Origin: Methanobacteriota archaeon
Lineage (GTDB): Archaea; Halobacteriota; Methanosarcinia; Methanosarcinales; Methanogasteraceae
Direction: 5' to 3'
DNA: 40,457 nt
NCBI GenBank assembly: GCA_048634345.1
Contig: JAIWAP010000003.1
Coordinates: 1 to 40,457, forward strand
Shown here one piece after another: positions 25,634 through 31,897 of the stretch. Position 1 is the stretch's first letter; every line of letters begins with the position of its first letter. The position numbers and the translations under genes are program-made. The notes beneath the pieces are model-generated. The model saw only the letters and a list, made by a program, of their open reading frames with translations, searched no databases and was not told the DNA's origin.

Positions 25634-25708
25634 CCGAAATCACCCGTCGCCCGGGTATGTGTGAGATTATGTGTGAGATATATCTGCCATCGCAGGCAAG
25701 AGTACAGA

Positions 25709-27490
25709 ATGGTGTCATCTATGGACATGCACGGCTGGACCGGAAACATCGCTGCAATCGATCTTGATCGCGGAACAATCAGGCGCACCAGTCTCCCCGG
25801 AGACCTCGCAAAAGACTTTCTCGGCGGAAGGGGACTTGGCGTGGCGCTTATGTGCAGCATGGCAGACCCAAACCCGGATCCTGCCTCTGGCGCTCTTTCT
25901 GCCCCGCTTATACTTGCAGTAGGTCCGCTCACAGGCATCGCGCCGATGTCAGGGCGCCATTCGTTTGTCACGAAGTCCCCGCTCACTGGCACGATCGTTG
26001 ATTCAAGCGGTGGGGGATTTTTCGGAAGCGAATTAAAACGCGCCGGACTTGACGCGCTGATCATCACAGGGGGGTCTGATACGCCGGTGTACATCAGAAT
26101 CGACGATGGTGACATAAGCATCAACGATGCGTCCAGCCTGTGGGGGCGAAACGTGCACGAGACAACAGACATGCTGACGGCTGAACACGGTGGGCGGGTG
26201 GCATGTATCGGGCGCGCCGGGGAGAAATGCGTCCGGTTCGCAAACATCATGAACGACCACCTCCACGCATCAGGACGGGGTGGTATCGGGGCTGTGATGG
26301 GGCAGAAGAGGCTAAAGGCGATCGATCTTCACGGGACCTGCAAACCGGGTGTTGCTGACAAGGAACGGTTCAGGGCGGTTAAAGAAGAGATCATGCGGCT
26401 GCTGCGCGCAAATCCCGCACTAAAAAGCCTCTCGACGTACGGAACTCCCTCGCTCGTGAACCTGATCAATCATTTCAAGCTAATGCCGGTCAGGAACTTC
26501 CGGAATATGCAATCCGTGGCTGCCGAGTCAATATCTGCTGAATACATCAATGAAAAGTACAGCGATGGAATGAAGAGGCATTCATGTCACAAATGCTCTG
26601 TTGCATGTAAACGCAGTACGCGGGAAGGGATCGAGATTCCGGAATATGAAACGATCGCGATGTTCGGACCTGACTGTGATAACACCGATTTCGATAAAAT
26701 CGCGGACGCAAACCGGATATGCAACGACTATGGCATGGATACAATCTCGTGCGGCTCGACCGTCGCATGTCACCAGGAGATATGCGGAGAGGCACGCGAA
26801 ACGACTGAAATGACAAAAATAGTCTCCATGATCGGGGAGCGGGAAGGGATCGGCGATGCATTGAGCAGGGGGTCTAAGGCATATTCAGAGACGAAGAACG
26901 CGGGAGACGCGAGCATACACGTCAAAGGTCTGGAACTGCCCGGATATGATCCGCGGGGTGTGCTCGGGCAGGCGCTCGGCTACGCGACGTCAAACCGCGG
27001 CGGGTGCCATACGCGTGCGTACATGGTTGCGCCTGAGATCATCGGCAAACCGAAGCTGATCGACCGCCGCACACTCGTCGGAAAGCCGGGGCTGGTCTCT
27101 ATATTCCAAAATCTCTCGGCTGCGATGGATTCACTTGTGATGTGCCGCTTCTCATCCTTTGCTCTCTCAGCCGAGGAGTATTCGGACATGCTTAGCGCTG
27201 TAACCGGACTTCCGTATACCTCAGAGGATCTGCTGCGCACAGGCGAGCGGATATGGAATCTTGAGCGCATGTTCAATCTACGTGCAGGCTTCACGCGAGC
27301 AGATGACACGCTGCCGGGCAGGTTCTTTGGCGATGGCGGTATCAATCGCGGCGAATTTGAGCGTGCGCTGGACGAATACTACCGGTTCAGGGGCTGGGGG
27401 CTTGATGGAGTGCCTGCTGGCTGGAAACTCGCGGAACTCGGGATTGCAAACCAGTTTGAAGACCGTTTCTTGACATATAGGAAAGTATAA
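25709..27490 (+). CDS. aor: Tungsten-containing aldehyde:ferredoxin oxidoreductase family protein
   Basis: GWTGNIAAIDL, FLGGRGL, KSPLTG, GRGGIGAVMG.KRLKAI, CxxCxxxC, PEYET, DYGMDTIS, VKGLELPGYDPRG, RGGCH. The start is at 25709, 25721 or 25727. Confidence 0.93.
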   Translation: MVSSMDMHGWTGNIAAIDLDRGTIRRTSLPGDLAKDFLGGRGLGVALMCSMADPNPDPASGALSAPLILAVGPLTGIAPMSGRHSFVTKSPLTGTIVDSSGGGFFGSELKRAGLDALIITGGSDTPVYIRIDDGDISINDASSLWGRNVHETTDMLTAEHGGRVACIGRAGEKCVRFANIMNDHLHASGRGGIGAVMGQKRLKAIDLHGTCKPGVADKERFRAVKEEIMRLLRANPALKSLSTYGTPSLVNLINHFKLMPVRNFRNMQSVAAESISAEYINEKYSDGMKRHSCHKCSVACKRSTREGIEIPEYETIAMFGPDCDNTDFDKIADANRICNDYGMDTISCGSTVACHQEICGEARETTEMTKIVSMIGEREGIGDALSRGSKAYSETKNAGDASIHVKGLELPGYDPRGVLGQALGYATSNRGGCHTRAYMVAPEIIGKPKLIDRRTLVGKPGLVSIFQNLSAAMDSLVMCRFSSFALSAEEYSDMLSAVTGLPYTSEDLLRTGERIWNLERMFNLRAGFTRADDTLPGRFFGDGGINRGEFERALDEYYRFRGWGLDGVPAGWKLAELGIANQFEDRFLTYRKV

Positions 27491-27583: not shown

Positions 27584-27913
27584 TCAAACATCGCATTCGC
27601 AGCACCGCTCCCGGAGGATCCGGATCTGTTCCTCATACGGAGTAACAAATTCGGTCTGTCTGGCTTCTCCAGTCGCAAGCTTCACATCAAGGGGCGTATG
27701 ATGCTTGTATCCTCGATTCGCCATCTCCTCAACCAGTTTCTCGTGTCTCAGGTAGAGTGCTCTGAGCCGCCCCTTCCAGCGCAGGGTCTCAGGGTGGTTC
27801 GCGTACGCTTTCTTGTTGCCGGTTATTATCGACCACATCGCATGAAGTTCCCTGTGCTCGCCGAGCAGATGGTTGCGGCATAATTTCTCGGGAGGTATAT
27901 CCCAGATTCTCAT
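27584..27913 (-). CDS. Pyrimidine-dimer DNA glycosylase / T4 endonuclease V-like family protein
   Basis: MRIWDIPPEKLCRNHLLGEHRELHAMW...YANHPETLRW...RHEKLVEEMANRGY. Confidence 0.85.
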   Translation of the reverse strand: MRIWDIPPEKLCRNHLLGEHRELHAMWSIITGNKKAYANHPETLRWKGRLRALYLRHEKLVEEMANRGYKHHTPLDVKLATGEARQTEFVTPYEEQIRILRERCCECDV

Positions 27914-28362
27914 AAACTTACCTCCAAACCGGTTTTTTCAAAATACATAACTCCACCATCCTCCTTTACCGCCGAAAACCCGTTTCTGTGGTACAGGTTG
28001 ATTGCGTCCTCCAGCCGTGCATCGGTTTTGAGCACAACCGTTGAATAGTTCTCCTCTGCAAATTTTAAAGCCTGAATGAAGAGAGCTCTCCCAAAACCCC
28101 TCCCTCTGAAGTCTTTTCTTACATAGATGCGCTTTATCTCGCACGTCCTGTCATCTATTCGTCTCACAGCACTCGTGCCTATAATCGTGCCGTCCACGAC
28201 CCCGGTGTAGAAGATTCCGCGATTATGCCGGTAATAATCATCGACCTCATCCAGATCAAAGTCTTTTGCAGGGTCGTACTCAAAACCCTCTTCGCTCAGC
28301 ACTTCCAGAACCAGTTCCTTCACCGCAGAGGTCATTGATCTATGAAATATCTCGGTTCTCAT
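27910..28362 (-). CDS. GNAT family N-acetyltransferase
   Basis: CEIKRIYVRKDFRGRGFGRAL (acetyl-CoA motif A) and AINLYHRNGF. Confidence 0.92.
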   Translation of the reverse strand: MRTEIFHRSMTSAVKELVLEVLSEEGFEYDPAKDFDLDEVDDYYRHNRGIFYTGVVDGTIIGTSAVRRIDDRTCEIKRIYVRKDFRGRGFGRALFIQALKFAEENYSTVVLKTDARLEDAINLYHRNGFSAVKEDGGVMYFEKTGLEVSL

Positions 28363-29570
28363 CGCAGATATGCCTCCGGGCGCTTGAGAAAGTCAAGCAC
28401 GATCGTTTGCAGAATCTCTGTGCCGGTCATGAGCACATCCTCGTCGATATCGAACCTGCTCGAATGGTTGCCCTCAACGACCCCTTTCTGCAGGTTCAGC
28501 GTCCCGAGCAGGAGATATATGCCAGGCACCTTCTCCAGGTAAAACGCGAAATCCTCGGCTCCGAAGATCGGTTTAGCCTCACAATCGACATCCGGGAATG
28601 TTTTCGTAAGTGTGGCACTCACAGCTTCCGTAAATGCGTTATCGTTCACGAGCACAGGGTAGCCATGGAGCACGTCGAGATCGTACGCGGGAAGATTAGC
28701 AACCCCGCCCCCATCGCCCTTCCTGTACGTCTGCATCAGGGCGTCGAGCGTCTTTTCGATCGTTCGCTCGATCGTCTCTGTGTCGCGATCATCAAACGTG
28801 CGGAAGCTCCCGAGTATATCCACCTCATCCGGCGTCCTGTTGAACTGCGCACCCCCGCGTATCCTGCCGATTCCGAGGACGTACCTCGCGGGATCGAGTA
28901 TACCCCCAACCCCGCCTGTAATGGTGCGAATGAAATCCGATGCGATCAGGATCGGGTCGATGCAGTCCGCGGGATTGGAATGGTGCCCGCCTTTCCCTGT
29001 GATCTTTATCGAGAAGACGTTTGAGCTTGCCATGAACCTGCCCGGTCGAAACGCTATTTTCCCGAGGTCGATGTAACCAAAGATATGCATCCCGAGGATC
29101 CCGTCCACCCCATCAAGCCCGCCCTCTGCAATCACCCGCGCTGCGCCACCGGGCGGCTGCTCCTCGGCTGGCTGGAAGATCAGCCTGACGCTTCCGGGCA
29201 GTCTGTCGCGCATCTCCTGAAGTGCGCATGCAGCACCAAGAACCATCGCGATATGCCCGTCGTGCCCGCAGGCGTGCATGATGCCCGCGTTCTCTGATAT
29301 ATACTCCCCGTTCAGCGCGGTCGGCTCTTCCAATACTTCAAGCGCATCAGTATCACTCCTGAGCGCGATGCAGGGGTGCGGCGCACGTCCGTGGATCGTT
29401 GCGATGACGCCGGTGTCTGCGATCTTCTCTGACTCGATCCCGAGGTCGCTCAGTACTCTTATGATCCTCTCCTGCGTTTTGAACTCCTTGAAACTCAGTT
29501 CGGGTTCCCTGTGAAATTCGCGCCTGAGCCAGATGATCCAGTCTTTGAGGGGGCAGGGTGTCACGTTCAT
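28359..29570 (-). CDS. M20D family amidohydrolase (N-acyl-amino acid amidohydrolase-like)
   Basis: RREFHREPELSFKE, ALRSDTDAL, MHACGHDGH, FQPAEE, GKGGH, GAEDFAFY, NHSSRFDIDE. Confidence 0.93.
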   Translation of the reverse strand: MNVTPCPLKDWIIWLRREFHREPELSFKEFKTQERIIRVLSDLGIESEKIADTGVIATIHGRAPHPCIALRSDTDALEVLEEPTALNGEYISENAGIMHACGHDGHIAMVLGAACALQEMRDRLPGSVRLIFQPAEEQPPGGAARVIAEGGLDGVDGILGMHIFGYIDLGKIAFRPGRFMASSNVFSIKITGKGGHHSNPADCIDPILIASDFIRTITGGVGGILDPARYVLGIGRIRGGAQFNRTPDEVDILGSFRTFDDRDTETIERTIEKTLDALMQTYRKGDGGGVANLPAYDLDVLHGYPVLVNDNAFTEAVSATLTKTFPDVDCEAKPIFGAEDFAFYLEKVPGIYLLLGTLNLQKGVVEGNHSSRFDIDEDVLMTGTEILQTIVLDFLKRPEAYLR

Positions 29571-29693
29571 TTCCTCATGGTTTGGTGTTTTGGATTTTAT
29601 GTTTAAGTTGAGTTTAAGTGGGTTTTTATCCTGTCCGGACCGGTGCTCATGAAAGCTGCGAGATGCGGCGTCCGGGATTCATGATTCAATGAT

Positions 29694-30932
29694 TCACAAT
29701 CCCGCGTTCTTTTCAGCCACCAGAATTACTGTGTCATAAGTAAAAAGCAACCGCCCGTCAGCGTCAAAACGGACATTGAGACCTGTTCTGTCATCTCCAA
29801 TCGAATCAATCATCGTGCGTCGCATCTGCTCGACGATTTCGTCTCCGGGATCGGCGATGCCCGCCCATTCATCAAAATATAAGTCAGCATCCCAGTTTCT
29901 TGCGTGAATCATCTTCAGTCCGGCATCGCGAAACATTCCTTCCAGTTCTGACTGCGGATACAGCCGGACATGGGACGGATCACGAATCTGCTCGATTTCA
30001 TTGTGGTACTTGCTCTTTGCAGTATCCCCAGACGAAAGCCCGTCCACGAGTACGATCGTTCCGCCGCCTTTACAGACACGAACCATTTCTGATATCACTT
30101 TTCCCGGGTTCGTAAAATGGTGGAATGCGAATCTACAGGAGACGATATCGAAAGACCCATCATCAAACTCAAGGGATTCAGCATCCATCATCTCAAAAGT
30201 GACGTTGGTAAGTTTCCTTTCATCACGGATTCCTTTTGCAATATCAATCATGTCACGCGTTATGTCGCAGCCGGTGACCTCAAAAACCCTGTCTGCAAGC
30301 TCAAACGCCATAAATCCGTTCCCTGTTGCGATATCAAGCACCTTATCAGATCTTTTCGGTGCAGCCAGATCAACGATCAGGTTCAGGTGATCTTTATTCG
30401 CTAAAATGCTGCTCTTTGAATATGCGGCTGACTGCCTGCCAAACCGCTCCTTTGCAGACTCTTTCTTGCGGTGGGCAACAAGACCCCCGTCCAGCAGGAT
30501 CTCGCGCAGGAAATCGGGCATCTTTGTCCCGGTATACTTGCAACCACCTGCCTCAACGATTCCATTCTCGATATCGATCTCGATCGCGTCCCCCTGCTCA
30601 CAGGAGATCGTTGTTCCGGTTTCTAGAATCGGAAGACCGATGTTTATTGCGTTTCTGAAAAAAATACGTGCGAATGTTGCTGCTACAACACATCCGACGC
30701 CAGCATGTTTGATCGCAAGCACTGCCTGCTCTCTTGATGACCCGCATCCGAAATTCCTGCCGGCGACGATGATGTCTCCCTTCTCTACCTTTCCTGCAAA
30801 TTCAGGATCGATACCTTCGAGCACATGATCGGCAAATACCTGCAGATCGGTGGTGCGCAGGTATTTGCCAGGGATGATCGCATCGGTATCGATGTCATCT
30901 CTGAATATCCAGGCTTTTCCTTTTATTTTCAA
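29694..30932 (-). CDS. hacB: Fusion of homoaconitase/isopropylmalate isomerase small subunit (aa ~1-157) with a class I SAM-dependent methyltransferase (aa ~158-412)
   Basis: N-terminal part: [47 protein letters not shown]-terminal part: [54 protein letters not shown]. One continuous ORF. Confidence 0.88.
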
Positions 30933-31723
30933 TTCAGAACGACCAGTGGATGTCTTCCCTTTGCCTTTGGCTTCTCTTTGTGCGGCTCTCTGATGATCTC
31001 GGTGTACTCATCCATCTCCTCCTTGCCGTTCACGAAGATTGCCGTGAAGTACTTCATGGTTCTTGGATCCATTCCAAGGAATCCGAAGTGCAGCGCGAGT
31101 TCGACTATGAACCAGTACATCGCCAACAGGTGGATCGTGCGCACAAATCCGATCGGGGACATGTTGAACAACGGGGATACATATCCAACGCCCACGAGAA
31201 TCGCCGGTTCGACAATGGTCTGCCAGATAGCGAATTCAGGATTGTACATGATCACACCGGATATGACGATCAGCACGACCGCAATGTTCTCAGGAATCAC
31301 CATCAGTTTGATGAACGGGTGCAGTTTGTTCTTGTAGTGCCCCGACTCCTCGTCGACGATGACGAATCGCGGATACTCTGCCTTACCAAAGAGACTGAGA
31401 AACTGATTCTTTAGCTGGATCGCATCAGGTATGAAGAATATCTCTGAGAGAAGATGCCCGCTCGTGATCAGATTGTATGGAATAAATATCCAGACTGCCA
31501 TGATGAATATGAGCGCGGCAAACATGTGGAACAGGCGCACGGTTTCATACGGGATGAGCTGCCATGCGTTTGCTGACGCTTCCATCACTGTACACATGTT
31601 GAACTGCTTTGCCATGTACCAGCCAGTGATGATAAGGGTCACACACGAAAATAAATGGAATGCATGCGCACGCATACCTTTCGGATCATATCGTTCGGTT
31701 ACTAAACCTGTACTTTGTGACAT
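30929..31723 (-). CDS. vhtC: VhtC/VhoC-like di-heme cytochrome b (methanophenazine-interacting type), orphan
   Basis: ERY...[49 protein letters not shown]...KYFTAIF match Methanosarcina VhtC as recalled. AGGAGG SD before ATG 31723. Confidence 0.8.
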
Positions 31724-31897
31724 GTGATGCCTCCTTCTGTTGCCTCCGCGGCAACATGCGATATACGGATTGATCGCTTTTAAATGTTGTGGTTTGGAGT
31801 GGCGCATGGCGAATATTTATCACCAATCATCAGGGCAGGGGTTGCTGTGATTGACCCGTGGAAAGTGATAATATATACCTTGATATAAGTCCGTATT

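Follow-up and report, generated by a model that had tools for sequence, protein, structure and literature searches.

The window analysed here, a stretch of 40,457 nucleotides from a Methanobacteriota archaeon of the family Methanogasteraceae (GenBank assembly GCA_048634345.1, contig JAIWAP010000003.1, positions 1 to 40,457 of the forward strand), encodes on its reverse strand a single open reading frame (ORF) of 412 aa plus stop (29694-30932) in which a HacB-type homoaconitase small subunit is joined to an S-adenosylmethionine (SAM)-dependent methyltransferase. The ORF has a TTG start and a TGA stop, and its two domains also lie in one frame in relatives. Residues 1-158 (30459-30932) correspond to the HacB-type small-subunit domain (aconitase domain 4), and residues 159-412 (29697-30458) to a class I SAM methyltransferase domain that resembles YcgJ and BH2331. 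In a Pfam scan of the ORF, residues 41-100 match Aconitase_C and residues 185-343 match class I methyltransferase domains. The boundary between the halves is at residues 158/159 (nt ~30458/30459), with neither a stop nor a linker between them, and it falls within a junction (residues ~152-165; 30438-30479) that is defined by the ORF, the ortholog alignment, an AlphaFold model and bridging contigs.

The start of the ORF aligns with residue 1 of MJ1271, and other species have GTG at that position. No in-frame ATG, GTG or TTG codon occurs between residues 138 and 198; production of a separate methyltransferase from an internal start was considered and rejected, as the first later candidate start would delete helices that are conserved in free-standing homologues. 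The event joined a HacB without its short C-terminal tail to a methyltransferase without ~4 residues, because the N-terminus of free-standing methyltransferases (MGIKESA...) aligns directly onto the junction. In an AlphaFold2 model of the fused protein built from a 60-row alignment (mean predicted local distance difference test score 91.3; predicted template modelling score 0.77), one helix (residues 151-166) spans the junction.

Extent and origin of the fusion

The window belongs to the ANME-2c family of anaerobic methanotrophic archaea (ANME), from which 27 species genomes in four genera were searched. The fused form was found in 25 of these: 23 genomes gave a full-length single match, in one more (G018) the two halves share a single open frame that carries an insertion, and in another (G001) the fused gene is cut by a contig end. 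A single TGA was reported in four of the full-length matches; the case checked (L021, with an ORF of 410 aa) fits an alignment that overruns the normal stop. In public metagenome-assembled genomes (MAGs), HacB and the methyltransferase are contiguous in one frame in all 25 ANME-2c loci, and the junction is free of indels in 24/24 aligned orthologues. A protein search found both Pfam domains in 66 of 120 listed clusters; full-length fused clusters numbered 61 (407-432 aa, 73-92% identity), some of them named Candidatus Methanogaster sp. ANME-2c. Near-identical DNA is present in cold-seep and marine-sediment runs from nine studies. The junction is bridged by a contig of an independent DNA run (X3, 30312-31094) and by contigs of three RNA libraries, namely X10 (29600-30623, with no differences), X17 (30279-30730) and X16 (30322-30538, a related strain); RNA libraries may contain DNA, and these contigs do not prove a single transcript.

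An assembly chimera, or a stop codon lost in one strain, can be discounted almost entirely, given the same fused frame in 25/27 family genomes, 25 MAG loci and 61 full-length protein clusters, and a junction bridged by independent DNA and RNA-library contigs. The preliminary description of this locus, made from the sequence alone, had taken the gene for a true fusion without stop, linker or internal Met at the junction, and had allowed that it might occur only in this assembly; the single 412-aa ORF, the conserved junction and the bridging contigs bear out the former, and the breadth of the family-wide distribution refutes the latter. Both halves are under purifying selection, the median dN/dS being 0.095 in HacB and 0.138 in the methyltransferase (24 sequences, 266 pairs, dS ~1). 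The fusion is confirmed as real, old and family-wide, far beyond what chance would produce.

In a search of 1.84 billion proteins, only one cluster among the best 150 representatives spans both halves, and no second independent origin of the HacB-methyltransferase architecture was found among them, which indicates that the fusion has a single origin. The longer matches among the best representatives were tandem methyltransferases, or LeuD together with DUF429 or an M20 fragment. The latter are single representatives (P0150 and P0157), one of which combines a LeuD-type domain with DUF429 and the other with a C-terminal M20 peptidase fragment; now and then, a gene of the LeuD type is fused to an unrelated neighbour or mis-called as one with it. 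As the preliminary description had supposed, no published account of a HacB-methyltransferase fusion was found in the literature searched, where supplements could still list one, and the available passages of Chadwick et al. on fusion or coenzyme B make no mention of it (PMC9012536).

Identity of the two halves

The N-terminal half matches TIGR02087 (LEUD_arch) over residues 5-157 with 210.7 bits against a cut-off of 108.95, which places it among the LeuD/HacB small subunits, and it also matches the HacB2_Meth and HacB_Meth models. Foldseek aligns the domain with 3vba, 2pkp and 1v7l at template modelling (TM) scores of 0.90-0.92, and the PDB sequence matches include 2pkp (MJ1271, 158 bits) and 3vba (an isopropylmalate/citramalate isomerase subunit, 160 bits). 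GCGSSREQA has the same letters in the alignments to 2pkp and 3vba; it contains the GSSRE motif of the aconitase-family substrate-binding domain (residues 64-68; 30729-30743), which has a role in substrate binding. A loop further upstream distinguishes the two structures: it reads YLRTTD in the fused protein and in 2pkp (YLRT at residues 24-27; 30852-30863), but YLVYTK at the same place in 3vba. Subunits of isopropylmalate isomerase have YLV(M/Y/T) in this position, and the loop reportedly sets substrate specificity (Jeyakanthan et al. 2010). YLRT is kept in 22/23 fused loci and in 6/7 free orthologues. The closest comparison is with MJ1271 of M. jannaschii, which has the same fold (TM 0.90), 51% identity in an alignment that is full-length from residue 1, and both YLRTTD and GSSRE in common with the HacB half. 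However, MJ1271 is a free protein of 170 aa, whereas in the fusion the last ~12 residues are replaced by a methyltransferase of 254 aa.

Among the matches listed for 121 genomes of the order, free-standing HacB orthologues (64-75% identity, frames of 156-224 aa) occur in each of five other families, and long HacB frames only in the family of the window. Genomes of the latter encode three small and three large aconitase-family subunits each; the small subunits besides the fused one are two paralogues, ~50% and ~45% identical to it, neither of which falls in the free HacB clade. In the genome to which the window belongs, the second small subunit is a LeuD adjoining LeuC and has a YLVT loop. The third is a protein of 170 aa with a KYKYDE loop (L003:1486-1998, plus strand, contig C91), encoded directly upstream of methanogenesis marker protein 11. 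Downstream of leuCD on contig C15, an ORF of 205 aa (L002:2625-3242, plus strand) with a YADDFVV motif resembles a group II intron/retron-type reverse transcriptase. From these sequence relationships, we take the fused gene to be the HacB of the lineage and its sole HacB-type small subunit, and, because ANME-2c organisms depend on coenzyme B, its homoaconitase role has very probably been retained. The assignment of the N-terminal half to HacB by its YLRT loop, also made in the preliminary description, is supported; its question whether an unfused hacB exists is answered by the lack of any other free-clade member in the family genomes, and its proposed survey of Methanosarcinales and ANME genomes yields a fused gene in ANME-2c and a free-standing HacB in the five other families.

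A HacA-like large subunit, the expected partner, is encoded in 27/27 family genomes; the complete top matches score 502-527 bits, under the cut-off of 550, and the best HacA-like gene is on other contigs than the fusion. A partial large subunit on contig C87 of the window's own assembly belongs to the second large-subunit group. In a genome of the same genus, the HacA-like frame (L138:1480-2748, minus strand) contains none of the codons ATG, GTG and TTG in the interval from the upstream stop to the conserved N-terminal sequence (...NIPTISEK...), and HacA-like genes of other genera start with M(P/L)TISEK, which suggests an unusual HacA start codon in the window's genus.

The C-terminal half is a member of the class I SAM methyltransferases, with matches to Pfam Methyltransf_31, Methyltransf_11 and Methyltransf_25 at E-values of 1e-23 to 1e-24 (83-85 bits, against cut-offs of 21-27). 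The SAM-binding motif I reads VLDIATGNG (residues 198-206; 30315-30341), and at least 95% of the homologues, whether fused, archaeal or bacterial, have L199, D200, A202, G204 and G206. A profile of the fused methyltransferase domain and 14 free relatives was searched against the PDB, where the top matches, spanning ~220-240 residues, were YcgJ of B. subtilis (1xxl/2glu; E 1.3e-55) and BH2331 of B. halodurans (1vl5; E 2.2e-48), with all other solved methyltransferases at E 2e-17 or weaker. Foldseek gives TM scores of 0.90-0.92 to the YcgJ and BH2331 structures. There is no curated model for this subfamily, which is defined here by PDB 1xxl and 1vl5; the fused domain belongs to it, with a similarity that extends to the C-terminal lid and to two motifs, CRxAxHHF and RDPSH, which it has in common with both proteins. 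The pocket residues of these motifs (C266, R267, H271, H272, R317, D318 and S320) are retained in 95% or more of the alignment rows for fused, archaeal and bacterial proteins. YcgJ and BH2331 are, in sequence and fold, the closest kin of the C-terminal half, but they are free-standing bacterial proteins from structural genomics and are never joined to an aconitase-family domain; titles and abstract openings in the literature searched name no function for either. Overall, the C-terminal half is a SAM-dependent methyltransferase of YcgJ/BH2331 type that is complete and probably active.

Closer affiliation with characterized methyltransferases was considered and rejected in three cases. E. coli Tam and yeast Tmt1 are trans-aconitate methyltransferases and, as such, a conceptual precedent for a methyltransferase that handles aconitase-type by-products. 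Tam is absent from the 21 PDB sequences matched at E-values of at most 1e-10; Agrobacterium Tam (PDB 2p35) ranks 48, at 19% identity and TM 0.62, and has only the generic class I SAM methyltransferase fold in common with the C-terminal half. The BioC model (TIGR02072) scores 57.6 bits against a cut-off of 184.95, and the UbiE/MenG model (TIGR01934) 81.6 bits against 158.35; a Pfam Ubie_methyltran match (75 bits) overlaps the generic methyltransferase domains. The Tam/Tmt1-like or BioC-like character suggested in the preliminary description is therefore not borne out, the nearest kin being YcgJ and BH2331.

The methyltransferase is also found outside ANME-2c. At a search threshold of E <= 1e-40 across the order, it is present in 25/26 genomes of the ANME-2c family (f1), there fused, in 15/20 of family f2, 21/34 of f3 and 1/1 of f5, and in 0/33 of f4 and 0/6 of f6. 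When the whole of family f4 was covered (177 genomes, 16 genera), it occurred in two genera only (9/10 and 3/3 genomes), and in none of the remaining 164 genomes from 14 genera. The free-standing loci come from Candidatus Methanoperedens and from seven Methanosarcinaceae archaeon MAGs (KA19, B4-05, E21_metabat_bin_6, Jaco Scar, CSMAG_471 and HMMV2 being among the names they carry), which are assigned to Ca. Methanovorans, or ANME-3 (PMC12180501). Within the Methanosarcinales, the methyltransferase is confined to methanotrophic lineages and to families f2 and f5. Bacterial homologues with 35-41% identity were found in Rokubacteria, Alphaproteobacteria and Methylocella MAGs, and when the methyltransferase domain was compared with the ESM Atlas, every cluster returned was described only generically as a class I SAM-dependent methyltransferase; most of these clusters were bacterial. 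The free orthologues of Methanoperedens and Methanovorans have the length and motifs of the fused domain, but they are separate genes, unlinked to hacB. Over the full 250 aa, the fused domain is 44-53% identical to free archaeal orthologues, and the two free archaeal groups are only 42% identical to each other; because the fused domain, at 49-53% identity, is closer to these groups than they are to one another, there is no sign of accelerated change after fusion.

Genomic neighbourhood

Directly upstream of the fusion lies a gene for a VhtC-like cytochrome b, a membrane protein of 292 aa (30929-31807, minus strand), the stop of which overlaps the start of the fusion by 4 nt (TTGA). Its matches to Pfam DUF4405 and Ni_hydr_CYTB are both weak, and TIGR02125 scores 33 bits. 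The cytochrome b gene is directly upstream of the fusion in 25/25 ANME-2c loci, and RNA-library contigs bridge the boundary between the two genes (X16, 30820-31058; X17, 30776-31109). In other families the homologue is placed elsewhere. Across the order, homologues were found in 24/26 genomes of f1, 18/20 of f2 (41-49% identity), 16/33 of f4 (33-40%, often in two copies) and 1/34 of f3. Chadwick et al. describe a VhtC-like cytochrome b in the ANME-2a, -2b and -2c lineages as part of a proposed methanophenazine:cytochrome c oxidoreductase (Mco), and report that the multihaem partner of the ANME-2c cytochrome b is encoded elsewhere (PMC9012536). The window cytochrome b is likewise VhtC-like and its distribution matches that description, and it is probably the one assigned there to the proposed Mco complex. 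The Mco clusters of ANME-2a/b combine the cytochrome b with a multihaem cytochrome (PMC9012536); with that partner encoded elsewhere in ANME-2c, the slot directly after cytochrome b is taken there by the HacB-methyltransferase gene. Each domain of the fused protein belongs to a known family; the novelty lies in their arrangement as one protein and in the coupling of the gene to that of cytochrome b.

Downstream of the fusion (27584-29570, minus strand) are genes for an M20 peptidase, a GNAT acetyltransferase and a pyrimidine-dimer DNA glycosylase; because no genus but that of the window keeps this order, we regard the trio as lying outside the conserved unit. An aldehyde:ferredoxin oxidoreductase (AOR) is encoded 2.2 kb from the fusion on the opposite strand (25661-27490, plus strand).

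The gene contexts of the free methyltransferases vary. No HacB gene is near any of 54 free-standing loci within flanks of up to 4 kb, and around these and 12 further loci no conserved or aconitase-family neighbour was found, with the exception of an AOR tandem in two f4 genera. There, AOR is directly downstream of the free methyltransferase in eight loci (seven Methanovorans MAGs, L043-L049, and L064), and the second f4 genus adds two genomes with the same arrangement (L151 and L152). The window AOR is 57% identical to the AOR of these tandems. A Fer4 protein of 267 aa is encoded upstream of the free methyltransferase in L043 and L044.

Interpretation and significance

The explanation that we favour, with moderate confidence, is that of a bifunctional protein that arose by a single fusion event in an ANME-2c ancestor and was then kept, in which the HacB half serves homoaconitase and the methyltransferase retains the chemistry of its free relatives. 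The HacB half would pair with the separately encoded HacA to form a [4Fe-4S] homoaconitase, which would run the 2-oxoacid elongation cycles that lead to 2-oxosuberate and coenzyme B. The fused methyltransferase would catalyse the same methylation as the free orthologues of methanotrophic Methanosarcinales and bacteria, and the fusion would fix co-expression and stoichiometry and add no new reaction on coenzyme B intermediates. The fused gene probably shares a transcript with the upstream cytochrome b gene and is probably also coupled to it in translation. We judge a fusion kept for expression and stoichiometry to be likelier than one kept for chemical coupling because the chemistry of the methyltransferase does not seem to be required for coenzyme B synthesis in general, since the enzyme was not found in 164 f4 and six f6 genomes and is present in bacteria.

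Several observations weigh against this explanation. The HacB domain falls below both NCBIfam equivalog cut-offs of 230 bits (203.2 for HacB2_Meth, NF040625, and 179.4 for HacB_Meth, NF040604); the free HacB orthologue L118 exceeds that of HacB2_Meth with 233.1 bits, and two more that are truncated by the edges of the alignment score 219.9 and 227.3. The assembly of the window itself (64% complete) yielded no HacA of the top type. One family genome (G017, 68% complete) shows no copy of the fusion, and another (G010, 84% complete) showed only a 5'-truncated, frameshifted copy. The junction is still recognisable in this G010 remnant (L050:3011-4052), which adjoins two transposase-like ORFs on the opposite strand and has no cytochrome b gene upstream. 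Finally, a rigid, linker-free junction of invariant length, kept across four genera, is more than a bead-on-a-string arrangement and so carries some Rosetta-stone prior for a functional link, and the conserved pocket, rich in Arg and His, would suit an anionic substrate such as a carboxylate.

The last two points also speak for coupled chemistry, in which the tethered methyltransferase would act on a metabolite of the homoaconitase cycle, by esterifying dead-end trans-(homo)aconitates in the manner of Tam, by masking a carboxyl group to set chain length in the manner of BioC, or by making a methylated coenzyme-B-type product. To these may be added the family-wide fixation of the fusion, the restriction of the methyltransferase within the Methanosarcinales to methanotrophic lineages and families f2 and f5, and a weak contextual link to acid/aldehyde chemistry through the AOR tandem of two f4 genera and the AOR near the fusion. 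We nevertheless consider such coupling unlikely: the methyltransferase has no specific similarity to Tam or BioC, its orthologues elsewhere are unlinked to hacB in 54/54 loci, homologues with the same pocket occur in bacteria that lack coenzyme B, the enzyme was not found in 164 methanogen genomes of f4 or in six of f6, which must make coenzyme B, and the fused domain has not diverged at an accelerated rate. The coupling to coenzyme B chain elongation proposed in the preliminary description is possible in principle and finds no support in the evidence gathered here; unlinked genes in relatives, which that description had named as a point against it, are the rule outside the ANME-2c family but not within it, and weaken the case for functional coupling. 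A bolder form of the idea, which we regard as more doubtful again, is that the methyltransferase is an accessory of methanotrophic Methanosarcinales whose substrate is a carboxylate from the branch of 2-oxoacid elongation and coenzyme B (for example trans-(homo)aconitates or an acid derived from 2-oxosuberate) and which was welded to homoaconitase in ANME-2c. If so, this would be the first case of a metabolite-repair enzyme in physical fusion with a member of the aconitase family, or else would provide a route to a modified thiol cofactor; the ANME-3 tandem with AOR would then be a second trace of this chemistry.

The two remaining explanations depart from homoaconitase or from catalysis. Recruitment of the HacB half and the methyltransferase to another pathway, with another LeuC/LeuD-type pair among the three paralogue pairs acting as homoaconitase, would accord with the three small and three large subunits per family genome, with the third small subunit (contig C91) adjoining methanogenesis marker 11, and with the sub-threshold equivalog scores of the fused domain. 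We think this improbable, as the fused domain is linked to the clade of free HacB2-type proteins by its YLRT loop and by 64-75% identity, whereas the other two paralogues have YLVT and KYKY loops and score lower on HacB_Meth (142 and 129 bits). By analogy, the rigid helical link to a catalytic small subunit might also befit a non-catalytic methyltransferase domain that senses SAM or S-adenosylhomocysteine and regulates homoaconitase; this seems very improbable, in that all family-wide motifs, including pocket residues that do not bind SAM, are retained as in the free enzymes, and dN/dS is 0.14 across the whole methyltransferase domain.

If the methyltransferase is unrelated to the pathway of its fusion partner, the protein would stand as a documented stable fusion that is not to be over-read as a Rosetta stone. 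Together, HacA and the HacB-methyltransferase protein constitute an expressible target that could assign a substrate to the whole YcgJ/BH2331 family, for which, to our knowledge, crystal structures have existed for two decades without a known function. The methyltransferase family is in addition a candidate marker of something that methanotrophic Methanosarcinales do differently, because within this order it is confined to methanotrophic lineages, beyond families f2 and f5, and was not found in 164 f4 methanogen genomes. Methyl-coenzyme M reductase cannot do without coenzyme B, whether in the oxidation of methane or in its formation. Because the only HacB-type subunit of ANME-2c exists solely in fusion with a methyltransferase, accounts of cofactor synthesis in these organisms, an uncultured and globally important methane sink, must include this fused protein.

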